Shown here: one piece after another, positions 15,340 through 30,167 of the stretch
How the letters are laid out: the number at the start of each line of letters is the position of its first letter
How positions within the stretch are numbered: the first letter of the stretch is position 1
Source of the DNA: Candidatus Nanoarchaeia archaeon
GTDB lineage: Archaea; Nanobdellota; Nanobdellia; Woesearchaeales; JANQNC01
Length of the DNA: 32,000 nucleotides
Direction of reading: 5' to 3'
Assembly: GCA_028279745.1 (NCBI GenBank)
Contig: JANQNC010000001.1
Location: 390,001 to 422,000 of the forward strand
Notes under the pieces: model-generated
The model's database searches: none
What the model saw: only the letters and a program-made list of their open reading frames with translations
What the model was told of the DNA's origin: nothing
Translations under genes and position numbers: made by a program

Positions 15340-15651
15340 ATGAAACGATTAAAAGCTTTAATTTACGAGCTGATGGATGCAAACAAAGAAAGACAAAAAG
15401 ACGACAGTCCTGAAGCAAGAGAGAAAGTAAGAAAGATTTCTGAAGAAATAGAGATACACTCAAGAGAGTTAGTAAGAGAATTAAGCAATGAAGCGATAGC
15501 CAAACTAACTGAGATTGCTACAGCATCAAGAGAGCTAAGAACAAGACATAAGGATTTAAAAGGAAAAGATGTTACATACATCATACAAGCGATACAAGCA
15601 GACGAGATCTTCTTTAGAAAAGAAGTGGATCACATAAAAAAGGCTGCTTGA
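15340..15651 (+). CDS. hypothetical alpha-helical/coiled-coil protein
   Basis: 103 aa. AAGGAGG lies 10 nt upstream and a TATTTAAAT box sits at ~15290-15299. No motif recognised. Confidence 0.6.
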   Translation: MKRLKALIYELMDANKERQKDDSPEAREKVRKISEEIEIHSRELVRELSNEAIAKLTEIATASRELRTRHKDLKGKDVTYIIQAIQADEIFFRKEVDHIKKAA

Positions 15652-20954: not shown

Positions 20955-21899
20955 CTAATCAATACTAACTCTAATCTGATGTTCTTCTTGGATTTTAAGA
21001 AGTTCATAGCTTGAAAGAGAGTCTCCAAACATTTCAGCAAACTGTAACAGAATATTATGCACATCTTTGATAGGCATCACTAGTTCAACATGCATATCAT
21101 AAACTCCGATATGATTCATAATAAAAACGCAAGATGGAAGCTGAGTGAAATAGTTAGACACTGCTTGTTTCTTACCGTAATCACTTAAAGAGATAAAAAG
21201 ATGATAATATGCTAAGCCAAGCACGTCATGATTAATTCTTACCTTTAGTTTACTAATCAATTTGTTCTTCATAATTTTCTTAAATCTATAAGATATACTT
21301 TCTGCAGTTAGACCAACTTTCTTTCCTATCTCTGCAAAAGAACTTCTTGAATTCGTTAAGAGAACACTTATGATCTCTTTGTCAGTATCATCAATCTCAA
21401 CTTCCTCGTCCAAAAAATTCAGTTCAGTAGTTATTGGGTCTATCTGCCCATCGTACAAATATTTTTCATTAATATCAACTGCAGAAACAGTTTTCATGAT
21501 CTGCTTATCTTTGAAATGAGTGCCAAACTTGTTTTGTAGTTCTATCATCATCTTGGAAAAAGATGCATCTTCATTTACAACAGAAGTAATTATAAAATCC
21601 CAACTGCCTTCAACAGATGCCATCCACGCAACAGAAGGTTGTGATGTTAAAAAACTGACCAATTCCTCTTTCTTCTTTAGACCAAGACTTTTATTTTTTA
21701 TGAGAACTTTGTAAACTGTTGAACCACTATCAATTCTAGGGATTGCCCAATACTCTGTAATTGTATTGTTCTTTTCTAACTGTTTAATCCTGTACTGCAC
21801 CACTTCTTTGCTAAGTCTTGTCTTTCTTCCTATTGCTGAAAAGGAGGATCTTACGTCGGCATCTAACGCTTGCAGTATTTTTAGGTCTTTTTTGTTCAT
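20955..21899 (-). CDS. tandem (duplicated) Lrp/AsnC-family transcriptional regulator
   Basis: 314 aa with two HTH_AsnC units (DLKILQALDADVRSSFSAIGRKTRLSKEVVQYRIKQLE and DKEIISVLLTNSRSSFAEIGKKVGLTAESISYRFKKIM). Each is followed by a RAM-like region. Confidence 0.8.
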   Translation of the reverse strand: MNKKDLKILQALDADVRSSFSAIGRKTRLSKEVVQYRIKQLEKNNTITEYWAIPRIDSGSTVYKVLIKNKSLGLKKKEELVSFLTSQPSVAWMASVEGSWDFIITSVVNEDASFSKMMIELQNKFGTHFKDKQIMKTVSAVDINEKYLYDGQIDPITTELNFLDEEVEIDDTDKEIISVLLTNSRSSFAEIGKKVGLTAESISYRFKKIMKNKLISKLKVRINHDVLGLAYYHLFISLSDYGKKQAVSNYFTQLPSCVFIMNHIGVYDMHVELVMPIKDVHNILLQFAEMFGDSLSSYELLKIQEEHQIRVSID

Positions 21900-22022: not shown

Positions 22023-22655
22023 ATGAAAACCAACGCAGACTATTGGCAGGATTACGTGCTTAATGACATTCCCGAATCTTATAGATTATTGTTTCAGGAA
22101 GAACAAAAATATCTGGTAAAACACATCAAAAAAGGTTCTAAAGTTCTTGAAGTTGCTTGTGGAGATGGAAGATCCATAAAAGAGATCCTCAGCATAACAA
22201 ATAATATCACAGGCATAGACCACGATGATAACGCAGTATCTGGTGCTAAAAAGAAGTTTCCAAACGTTAAAATCATCAATGCGGATGCTTCAAATATGCC
22301 CTTCCCAGATCAAGAGTTTGATTATGTCACATGCATGATCTCTTTCATGAACTTTGCAGATAAAAAGTATGAAATTCTTAAAGAGAAAAAACGAGTCTTA
22401 AAAGAAGGAGGCAGCATCATACTCAGCATCTTTTCTGAAGATGCATTCGAAGAAAGAATGAAAGTATACAAAGGCTGCGGAGTCAAGATAAAAGAGATAA
22501 AAGGAACAACTGTAGTTTTCGATGAAGACTTAGGAGATAACATTTCTGAACAGTTTTCAAAAGAACAACTAGTAGAGATATTTGATACTGTTGACTTGAG
22601 AATTGTTGACATCAAAAAAACAGGCATTGCTTACTTGTGCAAGTTAGAGAAGTGA
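22023..22655 (+). CDS. class I SAM-dependent methyltransferase
   Basis: 210 aa with VLEVACGDGR (motif I), INADASNMPF and GGSIILS. AAGGAGG lies 8 nt upstream. Confidence 0.85.
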   Translation: MKTNADYWQDYVLNDIPESYRLLFQEEQKYLVKHIKKGSKVLEVACGDGRSIKEILSITNNITGIDHDDNAVSGAKKKFPNVKIINADASNMPFPDQEFDYVTCMISFMNFADKKYEILKEKKRVLKEGGSIILSIFSEDAFEERMKVYKGCGVKIKEIKGTTVVFDEDLGDNISEQFSKEQLVEIFDTVDLRIVDIKKTGIAYLCKLEK

Positions 22656-22718: not shown

Positions 22719-23258
22719 TTATAGTTCACTAATGGAAATATCTTTTTTCTTGCTTTTTCTTATGTAATGTCTGTAATATCCAATGAAATTACTGATTAAG
22801 AATGAACCCTCTACAACAACTCCCATCGGAGAAAAAATAATTAGATTGTATATCATTATTGTAAATGTTCCCACCATCATTAGTTTCCTCATTAGTTTGT
22901 TATCTTTTTGAAAGTTTCCGATGATAAATACAAATAATCCTGCATATACTATCAAATCATATATTTCGGCATATCTGAAAATCAAAACAAGAGTGTTCAA
23001 TATCAAAAATATATACAAGTATTTTTTATTAGTGGTAAAGTAGCATGTAATAAATCTTAAGACTGAAAAGAACACAATAACTCCTGCTACAATTTTATTT
23101 AACAAGAAATAATGTGCGCTAATTAAACTCGCAGATACAATAAGGCACAAAAAAGTATATTCTCTTTTCTTAAATTGAAGACTTAGAAAATCAAAGCCCA
23201 TCGCAATTATCATTATAATTTGCGAAATGATGAATGGAATGGTAAGTTGCATCATACT
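22719..23258 (-). CDS. YgjV-family inner membrane protein
   Basis: The tracked start at 23303 is a GTG. The ATG at 23258 (MMQLTIPFI) lies ~20-25 nt downstream of a minus-strand TTTTTAAAT box. QFKKREYTF and VVEGSFLISNFIGYYRHY parallel E. coli YgjV (…RDERRFKKQL…, MIEGSFLLMNGLNIIRFWR). Confidence 0.7.
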   Translation of the reverse strand, partial: SMMQLTIPFIISQIIMIIAMGFDFLSLQFKKREYTFLCLIVSASLISAHYFLLNKIVAGVIVFFSVLRFITCYFTTNKKYLYIFLILNTLVLIFRYAEIYDLIVYAGLFVFIIGNFQKDNKLMRKLMMVGTFTIMIYNLIIFSPMGVVVEGSFLISNFIGYYRHYIRKSKKKDISISEL

Positions 23259-23492
23259 AAAAAAATAATAAAGAGTATTTAAAAACCTTATCCAAAAACC
23301 CACTTATTTTTTGCTTTTCTAATTTATGATTCTAAAAATCTCTGAATCGTAAAGAAGGATTATTTAGGTTAGCTTGTTTGAGACATACTTCTTCAAAACC
23401 AATACAAAAAAGAAAAAATGGTAAAAGAGATATATGAAAGAGTATGTGATAAATAGAAAAGAATAAAAGTCTTGGAATATTCTGCTGATTGT

Positions 23493-24128
23493 ATGGTAAG
23501 AAAGAAATGGTATTTTTGGAGTTTGCTACCTAGTCGTTTGAGGCACTTCAAAAAAAGCAAAGATGCTGCAAAAAAGAAAAAATTCTTGGAAAAGGTTAAA
23601 GAAAATTTTGTTAATGAAAGAAAAGACGACTTGTCTAACATGATAAAGAGATACAGTGAATTAAAAGATATTAAATTCATTTTTGTTGAAGGAGTTTTGA
23701 TGGACAAACTAAAACAATGTATTTATACTTACACTGAAGGTCGTTATTTGTCTACTATTTCTTTGTGTGGAATTATGGCGGAGGATGTGACAATAGATGT
23801 TTTCGTTTCGTCTACTATTAAAGCAAATAAAAATGTGCTTGGACAAAAGGCAAAAAGAGAAGCCTTTCGAACTCTGACGCAAGAGCACAGAACTAAATTC
23901 TTGTTTGATCTTAAGCTAATAGATGAAGAAACAGCAGGTAAGTTAAATGAGATAAGAATCAAAAGGAACTCTCATGTACATCCCAAAGGAGGAGTCTCTG
24001 AAAAAAAGGATTCTTTAACAATGCTTAATCTTTTAATAGATCTATTGCATAAGGTTTACCGACCAAATAAAATACCTTTTGATGTATTTCTGAAATCATT
24101 AGGCAAAGGTAAACAAGAAGAAGCATAA
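23493..24128 (+). CDS. alpha-helical DUF4145/HEPN-like protein with an Rx4H motif
   Basis: The tracked ORF starts at a TTG (23472) and the first ATG is at 23493. The recognisable domain starts at the ATG at 23700 (GGAG 7 nt upstream). Core: RYLSTISLCGIMAEDVTIDVF...KFLFDLKLIDEETAGKLNEIRIKRNSHVHP (R-x4-H at 23964-23981). The N-terminal boundary is uncertain. Confidence 0.5.
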   Translation: MVRKKWYFWSLLPSRLRHFKKSKDAAKKKKFLEKVKENFVNERKDDLSNMIKRYSELKDIKFIFVEGVLMDKLKQCIYTYTEGRYLSTISLCGIMAEDVTIDVFVSSTIKANKNVLGQKAKREAFRTLTQEHRTKFLFDLKLIDEETAGKLNEIRIKRNSHVHPKGGVSEKKDSLTMLNLLIDLLHKVYRPNKIPFDVFLKSLGKGKQEEA

Positions 24129-24131
24129 TCA

Positions 24132-25154
24132 TTATTTTTCGATTATATTCACTGCTTCATCTCGTGCATAACTCTCTCTCCATTCTTCATATAAATTATT
24201 TCTAACAATTCTGAAGATAACAACAATAACAAAGCCGAACTCTTTTTTATGCCTAGTAACTTGCCCAGTCAATCTATCTAATTCTGATTTATCTGGCTTT
24301 ATTTTTGTCTCTATTGGCACTTTTTTATCCACAACAATATCTGCATCACTCTCACCTTTTTCTTCTTTGACATCTTTAAAGAATTTTCTTAGATACTCTG
24401 ATAGTTCTGCCTTTTCTGCTTCTTCATACCTTCTTGTTTCAGAGGGATTCCATCCATTAATTATTTTTGTTACACCCTCAAATGTTGCTTCACTGATTGC
24501 AGACGGAAAAGCTGTTGTGGAAATGAATAAATCTGCCCCAACAACATGAATGGGCATTTTGCCCTCGTAAGAAGCAGAGTTATTAGGTTTTAACACAGAA
24601 TTATCTATTTTAAGAGGCAGAAAACCATCATTAACAAGCCTGCCAGTTTCTTCCTTAATGTGATAAGGCAATACATATTCTTGCTCTGTCGCATGTTTAA
24701 TATCTTCTTCTTTTGTAGCAATAAATTTGGACACTTTTGTCTTCCTATTTTCTACGCCTCTGAAATTATCATAATCGACGGATCTTTGGACTGCCAGTTC
24801 GTTTAACTTAAAGTAACTATAAACTCTCTGCAAATCACAAGCTACAAGAAAAAAATCAGTATTTAGCTCTAAAATAATTTTCTTTTCTTCCAAACAAACA
24901 ACCCACATCCTTGATGTAAGTATCTCCAGGAATCTTGAAAAAGCAAACCAGTATTCTTCATTCTCTAAAACTGTTCCTTCTTTGACAAAACTGAAAATCT
25001 TGTGTATTTTTGCTAATGTCTCTCTAAACTCTTCTTTATCAGGGGTCCTTGCAGTTTCAGAAAGTGAAGTGATAGCTTCATATCTATCTTTTACATCTTC
25101 AATAACCCATTTACCTTGTTCAAAAGAATCAAGGATTTTAGTCAAAATTTCCAT
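24132..25154 (-). CDS. protein with an unrecognised N-terminal domain and a C-terminal PD-(D/E)xK nuclease-like domain
   Basis: 340 aa. Residues 240-312 read RRYEEAEKAELSEYLRKFF...ESDADIVVDKKVPIETK...LDRLTGQV, giving helix-E, D272, E282-x-K284 and Q298 in the order typical of restriction-endonuclease-fold nucleases (~24219-24437). Confidence 0.6.
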   Translation of the reverse strand: MEILTKILDSFEQGKWVIEDVKDRYEAITSLSETARTPDKEEFRETLAKIHKIFSFVKEGTVLENEEYWFAFSRFLEILTSRMWVVCLEEKKIILELNTDFFLVACDLQRVYSYFKLNELAVQRSVDYDNFRGVENRKTKVSKFIATKEEDIKHATEQEYVLPYHIKEETGRLVNDGFLPLKIDNSVLKPNNSASYEGKMPIHVVGADLFISTTAFPSAISEATFEGVTKIINGWNPSETRRYEEAEKAELSEYLRKFFKDVKEEKGESDADIVVDKKVPIETKIKPDKSELDRLTGQVTRHKKEFGFVIVVIFRIVRNNLYEEWRESYARDEAVNIIEK

Positions 25155-25167
25155 TCTATAGTAGCAA

Positions 25168-25194
25168 AAGATTTATATATTGTATATAAATCTT
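25168..25194. promoter_or_regulatory. perfect 12-3-12 palindrome forming two outward-facing TATA boxes (bidirectional leaderless promoter)
   Basis: AAGATTTATATA-TTG-TATATAAATCTT. TTTATATA at 25172-25179 lies 26 nt from the ATG at 25205. Its mirror at 25183-25190 lies 29 nt from the ATG at 25154 (minus strand). Confidence 0.55.
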
Positions 25195-25204
25195 ATGCTC
25201 TATT

Positions 25205-26200
25205 ATGGGGGAAAAACCACTAATACAAAAAGACGGTGAACGAGTCATCATAACCCTTCCTAGTGAAGAAGTTGCAGATAGATGGTTTCATGGTTTACAA
25301 GAAACAGATTTTGAAGTCCTTGATGACGGCCAGTGCAGACATACTTATTCTGTGTGTATGATTAAATATTTTAACCCAGAAAAAACACCTGAAGAACTGC
25401 TAGATCTGATTTATAAAAAAGTTGAAGGATACATGAGTTATCTAGACCGTATGCCCTCCGACTATCCAAAGATAAGAGAGTTAGAGAAGAACCCCAAATT
25501 AGTCTCATTCAAGTTTAGTAAAACAAAGAACAAAATAATAAAAAAAGTGCAGTCCGGAATAGCTCTTAAGACACCATCAACAACATTTGATACAGCAGTT
25601 TACTTGACACAAGAAGAAGATTGCGTTTCGCTTCTTATTACAAACTTTAATAGTTCCAACGGAACTGCCCTTTTCAAGCTGAAAAATATGATGAGCTTGG
25701 CATCCAACGGGAATGAAAGGTATGTTAGTTTTAAGGATAAACTGGCTGAAATAGCCTTAAACTTTGATGTTCTAAGACATGTTGCATTTGATCCTGAGTA
25801 CCCTATTCCCCCAGATCTTATGCAAAAGATACAAGATGAGTACGGGGATGCTATAGATGTGGAGAATTTCAAGATATCCAACGAGCTGAAAGTAAAGAAA
25901 GATATTGGACGAACCTTAGATCTAAAATCATATCCCGAAATTAGGAGTATGCTTAAAGGATTGATAGGTCATGAAAGCATAACTACTATAATGGGAATCA
26001 AAAAAGGAACAACAGTCAAGATTGTAGAAGAATCGGGAGAGCCCATGAAAATAATTTTTTATCCATTAACCAAAGAAGTAATAACAAAAGGGGAATACCA
26101 GTATATCCTTGATTTCATAAAAGGTCTTGGTGGAGACACAACAGTCAAAAAAGAAGCATTGCAGACTTCTTTGTCGAATGTGTTTGAAGAAGAAAAATAA
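25205..26200 (+). CDS. hypothetical 331-aa protein (no recognised domain)
   Basis: Long ORF of non-repetitive composition with an ATG at leaderless distance from the palindromic TATA. It is divergent from the nuclease-like gene. Confidence 0.65.
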   Translation: MGEKPLIQKDGERVIITLPSEEVADRWFHGLQETDFEVLDDGQCRHTYSVCMIKYFNPEKTPEELLDLIYKKVEGYMSYLDRMPSDYPKIRELEKNPKLVSFKFSKTKNKIIKKVQSGIALKTPSTTFDTAVYLTQEEDCVSLLITNFNSSNGTALFKLKNMMSLASNGNERYVSFKDKLAEIALNFDVLRHVAFDPEYPIPPDLMQKIQDEYGDAIDVENFKISNELKVKKDIGRTLDLKSYPEIRSMLKGLIGHESITTIMGIKKGTTVKIVEESGEPMKIIFYPLTKEVITKGEYQYILDFIKGLGGDTTVKKEALQTSLSNVFEEEK

Positions 26201-26321: not shown

Positions 26322-26846
26322 ATGGCAAGAATAAGGAAATTCGTAGCATATAGGAGATTAGAAAGACCTTACACAAGAATCTCTAAATTTAGAAAGAAGG
26401 CTTTCATTAGAGTTAATCCTAACATAAAAATCCCAAGATTTAATATGGGGAATGCAAAGAAAACATACAAAACATATTTACATTTAGTTTCTAAAGCAGA
26501 CTTAAACATAAGACATAACGCATTAGACGCAGCAAGAATGACATGTAATAGACTTTTAGAAAAAACATTAACAACAGCAAACTATCATCTACTAATCAGA
26601 ACTTATCCTCATCATGTAATGAGAGAAAATCCTCTAGCATCAGGAGCTGGAGCAGATAGAATGAGTACAGGGATGAAGGCTTCATTCGGGAAAGCTATAG
26701 GTATGGCAGCAAGAATAAAGAAAGGACAAGAAATCTTCACAGTTGGTGTTGACACAAAAGAAGGAGAAGAGACCGCAGTTGAAGCATTAAGAAGAGCAAG
26801 ACAAAAACTGCCAGCAGGATGCACCGTAACAATTGAAAGAAAATGA
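26322..26846 (+). CDS. rpl10e: 50S ribosomal protein uL16 (L10e)
   Basis: 174 aa. ARIRKFVAYRRLERPYTR...RFNMG...HLVS...IRHNALDAARMTCNR...MRENPLASGAGADRMSTGMK matches archaeal L10e. Confidence 0.92.
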   Translation: MARIRKFVAYRRLERPYTRISKFRKKAFIRVNPNIKIPRFNMGNAKKTYKTYLHLVSKADLNIRHNALDAARMTCNRLLEKTLTTANYHLLIRTYPHHVMRENPLASGAGADRMSTGMKASFGKAIGMAARIKKGQEIFTVGVDTKEGEETAVEALRRARQKLPAGCTVTIERK

Positions 26847-27895: not shown

Positions 27896-28540
27896 TCATA
27901 TCTTTCTTAAAACACGTTCAAGAGCATACTGTTTACCTTCCAACCTTTCTTTGATAACATTATCAAAATTCCTGAAAGGCATAAGCCTAACATACATAAA
28001 CCTCTCATCCTTGTAAAACGAATGAAAATAATTCTTCTTAATCTCCAAAATTTTCTCCCGAGTGATCACTTCTCTCTTCTGAAGCAAAAGATTCTTTAAA
28101 ATCTTAAGATCATTCCTAACTTGAAGGCCCTCAGCAAGGAACAAAGGCAAAGTCTGAGGTTTGGGCGTATAATTTTTACATTCTCTCTCTAAAGAACCCT
28201 TAAACAACTCTTCCTTCGAATCATAAATCTCAATAAATTGCTCAGGCTCTCCACCATGAACAGTGTTAAACATATCATAGATGTTTTCATTAACATTGAC
28301 AAACTTAACTTTTTTTCCTACATTCTGACATCTACTCTTGTAAAAATTGTTAACAGAACCAAAAAACCAGCTCTGAGCAATTACTATTCCTTCCATATCA
28401 TAAACACAACTCCAGTCAACAGCATTAGAAATATTTTGTATTGCCCTATTCAGCTCCATAGCTGCATTAAACTCTAAATTTTTACCAGACCCCGGTCTGA
28501 AAACAGTATAGGGACCTACAAGAGAGATATCAAGCGGCAT
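27896..28540 (-). CDS. STAS-like (anti-sigma-antagonist fold) domain protein with a ~100-aa C-terminal extension
   Basis: 214 aa. LEFNAAMELNRAIQN...VDWSCVYDMEGIVIAQSWFFGSVNNFYKSRCQNVGKKVKFVNVNENIYDMFNTVHG follows the STAS layout. A GGAGG Shine-Dalgarno lies inside the 3' end of the PP2C gene, with an 11-nt overlap. Motif-level call only. Confidence 0.45.
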   Translation of the reverse strand: MPLDISLVGPYTVFRPGSGKNLEFNAAMELNRAIQNISNAVDWSCVYDMEGIVIAQSWFFGSVNNFYKSRCQNVGKKVKFVNVNENIYDMFNTVHGGEPEQFIEIYDSKEELFKGSLERECKNYTPKPQTLPLFLAEGLQVRNDLKILKNLLLQKREVITREKILEIKKNYFHSFYKDERFMYVRLMPFRNFDNVIKERLEGKQYALERVLRKI

Positions 28541-30167
28541 CTTTTTTCCTCCTGTAAGTTGCTACGCAAGTAACATCATCTTCTGACTGTTCTGTGTAAT
28601 TCTCACGATTCTTCTTGAAGTACTCCAACATAGCCTGCGCAGAACCAAAAGTTTTGTTTTCAGGCTTATCAAAAATGTACCTCTTGAATAATTTACTGTC
28701 CTCATCAAAGCACTCATAAAAACCATCAGTAAACATAACTATATGATCATCATAACCAATATTAGTCAAACCATCCTGCCAATAAGCCTTATCATCTGGT
28801 ACAAAATCTAAGTGTAAAAATTTACCTCTTGGCTCTTTCAAAACTTCAAAAGAACTTGTCTCGTGCCTATAGATTGCTGGACTCTCATGCCCCCCAGAAC
28901 AATAAGAAAAATCTCCATTCTTCACGTTAAGAACACCGATGAAAGCAGTAAGATAAGTTTCTATATTACTAGGATGTGTGCTTTTAAGATCAAGGAAAAC
29001 ATTACGCATTACAGAAGACAACTTTTTGTCAACACCGAAGTGCTTCACAAAAAAAGTCTTTGCGGAAGAGGCAAACAAAGCAGCAGGACTACCATGACCA
29101 ACAACATCAAAAACAATATAACCCAAATTGTCATCATCCAACCTGAACACATCGTAACAATCACCGCCAATACCTTCCATCGGCTCATACAAAGAAGCAA
29201 AATCCCACCCCTCAACAGAAGGCAAACTAGAAGGAATCAAACCTTTCATGATATGTTTAGTCCTTGACAATTCATCTGATCTAATCATATCAATAGTCTT
29301 CAAAGCTTCCTCCTTGTTCTGAATATTAAAGTAGTTATCAATGGCTAAAGCAGAATGAGTTACTGCTCTTTTAATCACATAAAAATCCTCATCAGAGAAT
29401 GGGGTTTTCTTAGTCAGATGAAAATAACCCAACGGAATCTTAACTTTCTTACCTCCTTCAATCTTATAAGTTGAGAGCAATGCACTTAGATGAGCCTTGA
29501 TCTCAAATTTAGTTGTTTTACTAATTTTATCTTTAACAGCTTCTTTTATTTCTACATCAGACATATTCTGAAAAACAGGCCCGAAAACATTTCTCAACAC
29601 AGACTCATCAGCGGTATCACTAACGTAAACAAAATCACTTACATTAACAGTTAAGAAAGAACTCTGTTTAATATCCTCACCTAAAATCTTCAAGTCTTCA
29701 GTTGAAAACTTAGACTTAGATTTATCAATAATGTCTTCAATAGACTTTCCCATAAAAGAATTATAACTCAACCCCGCAAAATTTCTCACACCTCTTTTGA
29801 AAACGTTAATCTCAGAATGTACAAAATCACCAGTCACCCTGAAAATGTTTGCGATGTCTTCAAGAATGCCATTAATGTCCTGTCTCTTAACCATACTTTC
29901 AAGAGCAGAATCAAACACCTTGTTTGATTTAGTCAAAAGGTTAAGTTTTTTATTAAGCTCTAAGTTCTCTGTCTCAAGGGACTCTGCCCTTTGCTTATAG
30001 AGTGCATCCTTCTCAATAATCTGGTTATAGAAAACTTTCTTTTCCTCTTCAGACATATCTTCTCCAATCAAACTATCAAAACGAGAAGCTTTTTCTTCTA
30101 CAGAAAGGTTTGTGCCAACTAATAGATCATACTGCCTAGCTTTCTCTTCTATACTCATATCTGCCAT
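28530..30167 (-). CDS. SpoIIE/RsbU-type PP2C serine phosphatase with an N-terminal repeat/coiled-coil and sensor-like region
   Basis: 545 aa. The C-terminal domain has GIGGDCYDVF, VFDVVGHGSPAALFASS, IVMFTDGFYECF and EDDVTCV, the SpoIIE-family PP2C motif set. Confidence 0.85.
   Translation of the reverse strand: MADMSIEEKARQYDLLVGTNLSVEEKASRFDSLIGEDMSEEEKKVFYNQIIEKDALYKQRAESLETENLELNKKLNLLTKSNKVFDSALESMVKRQDINGILEDIANIFRVTGDFVHSEINVFKRGVRNFAGLSYNSFMGKSIEDIIDKSKSKFSTEDLKILGEDIKQSSFLTVNVSDFVYVSDTADESVLRNVFGPVFQNMSDVEIKEAVKDKISKTTKFEIKAHLSALLSTYKIEGGKKVKIPLGYFHLTKKTPFSDEDFYVIKRAVTHSALAIDNYFNIQNKEEALKTIDMIRSDELSRTKHIMKGLIPSSLPSVEGWDFASLYEPMEGIGGDCYDVFRLDDDNLGYIVFDVVGHGSPAALFASSAKTFFVKHFGVDKKLSSVMRNVFLDLKSTHPSNIETYLTAFIGVLNVKNGDFSYCSGGHESPAIYRHETSSFEVLKEPRGKFLHLDFVPDDKAYWQDGLTNIGYDDHIVMFTDGFYECFDEDSKLFKRYIFDKPENKTFGSAQAMLEYFKKNRENYTEQSEDDVTCVATYRRKKDAA

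Follow-up and report, generated by a model that had tools for sequence, protein, structure and literature searches.

Three open reading frames (ORFs), here called A, B and C, lie at 23493-26200 of a 32,000-nucleotide stretch of the Candidatus Nanoarchaeia archaeon genome (contig JANQNC010000001.1, positions 390,001 to 422,000; the whole stretch is referred to as the window). Our results reveal that B and C form a strictly conserved and very rare archaeal gene pair, found in about six lineages among ~15 billion proteins. ORF calls reproduce the coordinates of all three genes given in an initial annotation of this DNA, and the peptide motifs quoted there are present in the translations of A and B. 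The features at the locus are as follows.

23493..24128, + strand: gene A, 211 residues, ATG start (the identical start is called in NCBI)
24132..25154, - strand: gene B, 340 residues; soluble three-part protein, the nuclease subunit of the conserved pair
25155..25204, no strand: B/C divergent spacer, 50 nt, containing a palindrome at 25163-25199
25205..26200, + strand: gene C, 331 residues; soluble, with a fold without known match; the obligate partner of B

A and B are convergent, with their stop codons 3 nt apart (24129-24131), and B and C diverge from the 50-nt spacer, both distances being as initially annotated. A word-indexed search with these genes returned two B homologues (53-54% identity) and no C homologue; it missed a C homologue of 51% identity on a JGI/ENA contig, and its 'singleton' results can be false negatives. 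Three further full-length proteins, P0005, P0006 and P0007, as well as P0058, came from an exhaustive search with a profile of the B alignment, and the full-length B homologues (P0002, P0003, P0005, P0006 and P0007) are 32-54% identical. The loci represent six lineages (the window, L001-7, L008-10, L011/13, L012 and L014/15; n=6). On the contig of P0002 (L001), the B homologue has beside it a divergent gene whose 333-residue product shares 51% identity with C (E 4e-114), and C homologues likewise adjoin the B homologues in L008 (30% identity), L011 and L012 (24% identity each), with that of L014 being recognised by hhalign (probability 99.2, E 7.7e-20). Homologues of B and C are adjacent in six lineages of six, divergently in five, with L014 being co-directional with a 1-nt gap, and the pairwise identities of the two proteins rise and fall together (B/C 54/51, 36/30 and 33/24). 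The functional link initially proposed between B and C is thus upheld by neighbouring homologues in every lineage; the proposed orphan status is only partly true, since homologues of both occur in five other lineages.

Other collections yielded little. Profile scans of genome contigs for B gave nothing with alignment A1 and only a Methanosarcinales metagenome-assembled genome (MAG) with A6, and a metagenome scan gave the L001 contig only. Scans of viral contigs (IMG/VR) for B (alignments A1 and A6) and for VirB4 (A7) were empty, as were tblastn searches of phage and plasmid collections with A, B and C and of PLSDB (72,556 plasmids) with B. The idea that the pair is a transposon was rejected, no terminal inverted or direct repeats being present around it in five loci.

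The initial annotation had proposed A, B and C together as one compact candidate defence or toxin system with two effectors, an HEPN RNase (A) and a PD-(D/E)xK nuclease (B). In the window, A, B and C do lie side by side, and HEPN and PD-(D/E)xK modules are common defence effectors. A is a basic protein (pI 9.8) with, in its C-terminal part, the motif RNSHVH (in KRNSHVHP), an R-N-x-x-x-H arrangement which fits Rx4-6H and which is covered by matches to DUF4145 (residues 131-180; E 0.02, with a score of 15.4 bits where the cut-off is 23.1) and to the PADLOC CARF_HEPN profile (E 0.008, residues 150-201). The motif and these two HEPN-family matches, both sub-threshold, give tentative weight to the HEPN-like character initially assigned to A; it has no match in the PDB or among plasmids and phages. 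However, while B and C are neighbours everywhere, no A homologue occurs at the loci of any of the five other lineages, and the window and the L001-type loci have no gene in common besides B and C, so the unit is B plus C. A furthermore converges stop-to-stop on B, so that the two cannot be co-transcribed. Nor is there a compositional signal of an inserted cassette. The island has a GC content of 0.337, which is at the 26th percentile for the window (mean 0.347, standard deviation 0.018), and the per-gene A/T content of A, B and C is similar to that of neighbouring genes; the idea of a compositional island was rejected, and neither the A-rich composition nor the accessory insertion that the initial annotation took it to fit is supported. 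We consider a three-gene system highly improbable, and the model is essentially excluded; A is an independent neighbour, probably of HEPN type, that stands outside the conserved module.

A usable AlphaFold2 (AF2) model of B was obtained with a 56-sequence alignment (A3), giving a predicted local distance difference test score (pLDDT) of 92.6 and a predicted template modelling score (pTM) of 0.73, whereas a 3-sequence alignment gave a pLDDT of only 42.7. No transmembrane segment is present in B, and its parts are as follows.

24759..25154, - strand: N-terminal domain, residues 1-132, all-helical, seven helices (AF2)
24510..24710, - strand: middle domain, residues ~149-215, one helix and seven short β strands (AF2)
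24135..24491, - strand: PD-(D/E)xK domain, residues ~222-340, C-terminal
catalytic codons, - strand: E244 (24423-24425), D272 (24339-24341), E282 (24309-24311), K284 (24303-24305) and Q298 (24261-24263)

The C-terminal domain has the αβββαβ core of the superfamily in the AF2 model (helix 244-255, strands 262-266, 271-275 and 279-285, helix 289-306, strand 309-314; pLDDT 83-98 over residues 230-340), arranged around a central mixed β-sheet, with E244 on α1, D272 opening β2, E282-x-K284 on β3 and Q298 on α2. W235, P237, E244, D272, K284 and Q298 are invariant in the 56-sequence alignment and E282 is at least 90% conserved; across the family, D…(D/E)xK is kept in 141 of 152 members. The sole significant annotation is a match of residues 223-318 to phrog_28707, a 'nuclease' (E 3.5e-6). 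Weaker matches, below the Pfam thresholds, are to PDDEXK_3 (6 of 56 members), PDDEXK_10 and Mrr_cat; to these can be added sce7726_fam (E 0.018, residues 257-313), the Hjc structure 1gef_A (E 0.22) and, by local Foldseek, the ERCC4 domains of FANCM, MUS81 and XPF (probability 0.85-0.98) and viral PD-(D/E)xK proteins, with E-values that are non-significant alone. The PDDEXK_3, PDDEXK_10, Mrr_cat, Hjc, ERCC4 and viral matches are all weak and all point in the same direction; sequence searches of the PDB with A, B and C and with profiles A1, A2 and A4 gave nothing meaningful. On sequence and model together, the C-terminal part of B is a PD-(D/E)xK (restriction-endonuclease-like) nuclease domain with a complete predicted catalytic set (E244, D272, E282-x-K284 and Q298), in agreement with the initial annotation, whose predicted E/D/ExK/Q residues correspond to the conserved core.

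The signature of the domain, W-x-P…EE-x-YK…D-I-L-V…P-I-E-x-K-K-x-P…DRL-x-GQ, defines a family of its own with more than 300 clusters at 50% identity, which no Pfam or NCBIfam model reaches at threshold, and the catalytic domain of B is a new family inside the known PD-(D/E)xK superfamily. The B-type nuclease domain occurs alone or, often, fused to SAP motifs. By a loose pattern, one to three N-terminal SAP motifs are present in at least 28 of 155 relatives (P0012, P0024, P0045, P0073, P0086, P0107 and others), with PF02037 being precomputed for several; the SAP-fused P0086 is encoded among housekeeping genes in a Methanomassiliicoccales MAG. Since SAP motifs bind DNA, these fusions imply that the substrate of the family, and so of B, would be DNA. 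The contexts of the relatives with the nuclease domain only (P0086, P0009, P0018 and P0110) are housekeeping genes or contigs too short to inform. In several members (P0003, P0020, P0025, P0033, P0036, P0057 and P0089), the glutamate of the ExK motif is replaced by alanine or histidine (IAMK, IALK, IHLK or IAIK) with D and K being kept, and these proteins may be inactive or altered enzymes.

The other parts of B are distinctive. Invariant residues of the N-terminal domain include E66, W69, R74, E77, K91, R124 and Y128, and it has no Pfam match and no significant PDB fold match; the domain is family-specific and co-varies with C. The middle domain, in which H165, N175 and G177 are invariant, gives no sequence or PDB fold match, and may be a nucleic-acid-binding module. 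Foldseek of B against BFVD finds KilA-N proteins with probability 1.0 and target-normalised TM-scores of 0.51-0.58, at a high root-mean-square deviation and E-values of 0.012 or above; the matches come without query coordinates, so that they are not assignable to a domain. C has no transmembrane segment and no match in Pfam, NCBIfam, PADLOC, PHROGs or the PDB, and 13 of its residues are invariant in an alignment of five homologues (W27, Y48, D86, P88, K89, P124, T126, F128, T130, L143, N147, N152 and A184). C was tried as a paralogue of B and rejected (hhalign probability 0.1). The N-terminal region of B and all of C are thus, as first annotated, without a match to any described family, and their combination is undescribed.

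P0058 (L014) shares only residues 21-201 of B and has another C-terminal domain of nuclease-like character (weak match to PDDEXK_3, E 0.054), its gene nonetheless being adjoined by a C homologue despite the swapped nuclease domain. Retention of the B N-terminal region and of the C neighbour with another C-terminus suggests that C is tied to the N-terminal region of B, and it is likely through this region that C would bind or regulate B.

The B/C spacer was initially described as almost entirely a perfect palindrome. The palindrome is real and beyond chance, but is not perfect and covers 37 of the 50 nt: its arms (25163-25179 and 25183-25199) are 17 nt each, with one mismatch and a 3-nt loop. 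Arms of 17 nt were reached by 1 of 20,000 shuffles of the spacer, and other 50-nt windows of the 32 kb have arms of at most 11 nt. It consists of two opposed TTTATATA boxes, one per arm (25172-25179 on the + strand and 25190-25183 on the - strand), together with symmetric flanks, and the centre of the distal TTTATATA box lies 29.5 nt from the start codon of C and 32.5 nt from that of B. Such distances fit archaeal TATA boxes of near-leaderless transcripts, and from the box positions we predict that the promoters of B and C are interdigitated and (near-)leaderless. The spacers at homologous divergent loci are 34-53 nt long and AT-rich, with weaker opposed TATA-like palindromes (arms of 8-13 nt), which argues that the symmetry is mostly promoter architecture; the palindrome sequence is not conserved across the homologous B–C loci, that of the window being the best preserved among them all. 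Possibly the palindrome also serves as a putative binding site for a regulator or the nuclease, and it is speculation that its extra length in the window marks such a site.

Five loci (the window, L001, L008/L009, L011 and L014) have enough flanking sequence to inform on context, and in three of these (L001, L011 and L014) B–C is within one gene of virB4, in clusters of minimal type IV secretion system (T4SS) genes. The arrangements, including those with restriction–modification (R-M) genes, are as follows.

L001: pilin, 436-residue protein, TrbL, B, C, VirB4, then a DUF2779-family protein and a DrmD-like SNF2 helicase
L011 (Methanosarcinales MAG): type I R-M, C, B, 68-residue protein, VirB4, TrbL fusion, pilin, tRNA-Thr
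L014: pilin, TrbL, VirB4, B', C', ArdA, MmeI-like R-M enzyme, PLD-SNF2 helicase; near FtsZ and a diphthamide-synthase gene
L008/L009: B–C, 290-residue gene, Fic and DUF1232, between uvrA and uvrB
VirB4 genes: L001 5825-8902 (- strand); L011 9371-12406 (- strand); L014 4819-7911 (+ strand)

The three T4SS clusters are of one family (VirB4 44-47%, TrbL 35-41% and pilin 39-43% identical), and their VirB4 is distantly related to conjugative VirB4 of Firmicutes and Mollicutes. R-M, ArdA or DrmD-like genes are near the pair in all three, which are T4SS elements, and the stand-alone loci have toxin-like neighbours, i.e. the HEPN-like A in the window and Fic in L008. No relaxase or coupling protein is visible in the L001, L011 and L014 clusters, and no T4SS gene is present in the 32-kb window or within 8-10 kb in L008/L009. 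In our reading, B–C is a portable module of archaeal integrated mobile elements, its ancestral site being probably beside VirB4 in a minimal pilin–VirB6–VirB4 cluster with R-M and anti-restriction cargo around it; the window pair is a stand-alone copy among housekeeping genes.

The ~190-residue C-terminal part of the cluster VirB4 proteins is lacking in Firmicutes VirB4 (matches end near residue 835); an H…D-I-I…A-I-E-x-E-T…K pattern is invariant in it, which resembles another restriction-endonuclease-like motif, and Pfam gives no match there. In L011, the tRNA-Thr (15418-15489) abuts the pilin end of the island comprising the T4SS, B–C and type I R-M genes and is a likely integration site of the element. 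The extra 290-residue, Fic-domain and DUF1232 genes travel with the pair in L008 (1864-6668) and L009 (6000-10228), and the ArdA gene of L014 (10458-10961), which shares its strand with the T4SS genes, follows B'–C' after a few small ORFs.

The VirB4 linkage raises the question of whether B–C serves a minimal archaeal T4SS as its DNA-processing module. B would then be a relaxase-equivalent or uptake nuclease that nicks or cuts the DNA on its way out or in, and C would assist or target it; the spacer with its palindrome would be oriT-like (oriT, origin of transfer), and the window copy mobilisable or a relict with its T4SS elsewhere. The proximity to VirB4 in three of the five informative loci concerns a single T4SS family; B precedes C throughout, and C shares its strand with the T4SS genes, despite rearrangements; and parsimony places the T4SS linkage at the deepest branches (L014 and L011) and in the nearest relative of the window (L001). 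A divergent gene pair flanking an inverted repeat is a classical oriT layout, and B'C' of L014 lie between VirB4 and ArdA, which is where Tn916 and similar bacterial elements have their relaxase and oriT. The three clusters are, as noted, without a visible relaxase or coupling protein, and archaeal conjugative elements as a whole have no known relaxase (PMC9905601, PMC6563490, PMC12857230). MOB_C relaxases, which fall within the PD-(D/E)xK superfamily (PMC12857230), provide a precedent for an enzyme of this type in such a role. However, the window and L008/L009 pairs stand apart from any T4SS gene over the distances given above, the palindrome is not conserved in sequence and is for the most part accounted for by a pair of opposed TATA boxes, and no oriT was identifiable. 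There is also no similarity to MOB_C, either with the A3 hidden Markov model (HMM) against the CloDF13 ORFs or by tblastn of B against the 72,556 plasmids; exchange of the nuclease domain, as in P0058, is more typical of conflict systems; and the sample of T4SS clusters is biased, all having been found through B. We regard a DNA-processing role as the main rival reading, though unlikely, and as slightly less likely still the specific form in which B–C, as a nuclease with a novel targeting region together with a novel auxiliary protein, would be the relaxosome-equivalent that prepares DNA for transfer or uptake in an archaeal T4SS family without a recognisable relaxase or coupling protein, with the window copy being mobilisable or relict.

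The tight pairing and joint control region could alternatively be those of an addiction or stabilisation module of the mobile element, of toxin–antitoxin type, in which a DNase toxin, B, is restrained by C, and the divergent promoters autoregulate. The pair is strictly conserved with a very short joint regulatory region that includes a palindrome, it is sited on integrated elements, and it survives in isolation in two genomes. Against this, the proteins are large and multi-domain (~330-340 residues), unlike typical type II pairs, neither B nor C matches a DNA-binding antitoxin domain (helix-turn-helix, ribbon-helix-helix or AbrB), and a homologue with a degraded active site stays full-length; such a module is in our view improbable. 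The same low probability attaches to the view that the window pair no longer functions and is left over from a decayed integrative and conjugative element (ICE). Decay of archaeal ICEs into cryptic elements has been described (PMC6563490), and there is no T4SS, integrase, tRNA or repeat boundary near the window pair; its two ORFs are, however, intact and full-length with all catalytic and family-invariant residues retained, and its promoter palindrome is the best preserved at any of the loci.

The reading that we favour is of a mobile-element DNA-nuclease module with a conflict function, composed of the divergent genes B and C. In this proposal, B and C would be expressed from the two interdigitated near-leaderless promoters that form the 37-nt palindrome; a complex of C with the N-terminal region of B would recognise a DNA feature or signal, and this recognition would license the B nuclease to cut DNA, the outcome being a conflict function at the DNA level by which the element would defend itself against foreign or competing DNA or exclude it. 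A conflict role is ranked first because the nuclease domain is exchangeable while the N-terminal region and its partner evolve fast, and because the neighbours of the pair are defence or toxin genes and the pair also survives alone. Several points weigh against it. No PADLOC profile matches B or C of the window, or the homologues searched with them (five for B and four for C); B–C is divergent in five of six lineages, whereas defence operons are usually co-directional; and the recurrence of the pair next to VirB4, in three clusters that diverged deeply, exceeds the expectation for random cargo and fits transfer at least equally well. The complex of B with C is something that we purely infer. 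With respect to the nuclease itself, the Foldseek E-values for the fold are non-significant by themselves, and the ExK glutamate is missing in the full-length homologue P0003 and in ~8 family members. The sample comprises six lineages only, with every locus found through B, and is thus biased. On balance, we place the favoured explanation as a whole at an even chance, and a conflict or defence role of B–C as such slightly short of that.

The flanking features of the window, which agree with the ygjV-like and rpl10e flanks initially annotated, are as follows.

22023-22655: generic class-I S-adenosylmethionine (SAM) methyltransferase, two genes from the island, with no mark of a DNA methyltransferase
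22719-23303: flanking YgjV-family membrane gene (Pfam E 2e-34)
26322-26846: flanking uL16/L10e gene, with an MscS gene next to it

The methyltransferase qualifies the initial statement that none is nearby. The statement that CRISPR is absent stands, there being no CRISPR or cas genes in the window, nor at the related B–C loci. The remaining window genes are housekeeping (L11, DnaK, DnaJ, a NOG1-type GTPase and others), with L10e and NOG1 pointing to an archaeon, and the contig as a whole measures 1.30 Mb. A duplicated Lrp/AsnC-like regulator of 314 residues with two tandem AsnC-type helix-turn-helix modules is encoded at 20955-21899 (- strand), where its neighbours are a dehydroquinate-synthase-like gene on one side and the SAM methyltransferase gene on the other. 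A 214-residue ORF without a family match (27896-28540) has an 11-nt same-strand overlap with the start of a gene which encodes a 545-residue SpoIIE/PP2C-type phosphatase with repeated EEKA-like segments at its N-terminus (28530-30167, - strand); the two may constitute a regulatory pair.

The overall results identify a protein region and a partner protein without described relatives, namely the N-terminal part of B and C, in a rare and strictly conserved module, and delineate a sizeable PD-(D/E)xK domain family beyond the Pfam models that is often fused to SAP motifs. The recurrent position of B–C beside VirB4 bears on the question of the missing archaeal DNA-processing enzyme, given that neither conjugation nor DNA import in archaea has so far been assigned a relaxase or any other enzyme for this task (PMC9905601, PMC6563490, PMC12857230). 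Should B–C prove to process the DNA that is transferred, this question becomes testable; if it acts in defence or exclusion, it would represent a new archaeal system carried by ICE-like elements. In either case, the proper experimental unit is B plus C, rather than A plus B plus C.

Comparison with known systems places B, through the αβββαβ core and catalytic residue layout of residues 222-340, with PD-(D/E)xK nucleases such as archaeal Hjc, the XPF/MUS81 ERCC4 domain and phrog_28707, from which it differs in lying outside the Pfam and NCBIfam thresholds in a signature family of its own. The likeness to HEPN/DUF4145 proteins concerns A only, through its motif and the two profile matches on it; A scores below the family thresholds and is unlinked to B–C. 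B and C, of 340 and 331 residues and divergent, also differ from type II toxin–antitoxin systems, which are small co-transcribed genes. With Shedu (SduA/DUF4263) and the CARF-nucleases Can2/Card1, to which the initial annotation compared the locus, B shares a variable N-terminal region combined with a C-terminal PD-(D/E)xK effector. The comparison does not extend further: neither B nor C matches Shedu, CARF-nucleases or any PADLOC family, B and five of its homologues give no DUF4263/SduA match at cut-offs as loose as E<=1 or E<=0.1, B has no CARF match and no CRISPR context, and, unlike these nucleases, B needs a conserved second gene, C, and its usual neighbours are T4SS genes.

MOB_C relaxases, such as TraX of pAD1 and MobC of CloDF13, resemble B in being enzymes of the PD-(D/E)xK superfamily. 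Their genes neighbour those for conjugation, as the pair does in three of the five informative loci and not in the window, and they work together with auxiliary proteins on a repeat-containing oriT (PMC12857230). They are bacterial, the window copy of B–C has no T4SS nearby, and sequence kinship was rejected at the available sensitivity, the A3 HMM giving at most 0.1 bits against all CloDF13 ORFs and tblastn against PLSDB giving no match. The clusters that host B–C are minimal, as are those of the Ced and Ted systems, comprising a VirB2-like pilin, VirB6/TrbL and VirB4 without VirD4 or a relaxase (PMC9905601); this minimal Ced/Ted-like gene set is present beside the pair in L001, L011 and L014 and absent from the window. 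The accessory genes of Ced/Ted are ParA, HerA and Rad50, with B–C not being described there, and the VirB4 of the B–C clusters differs in being nearest to the MPF-FATA type of Firmicutes and Mollicutes (CD1110 and Mbov_0397 families) and in carrying the ~190-residue C-terminal extension.

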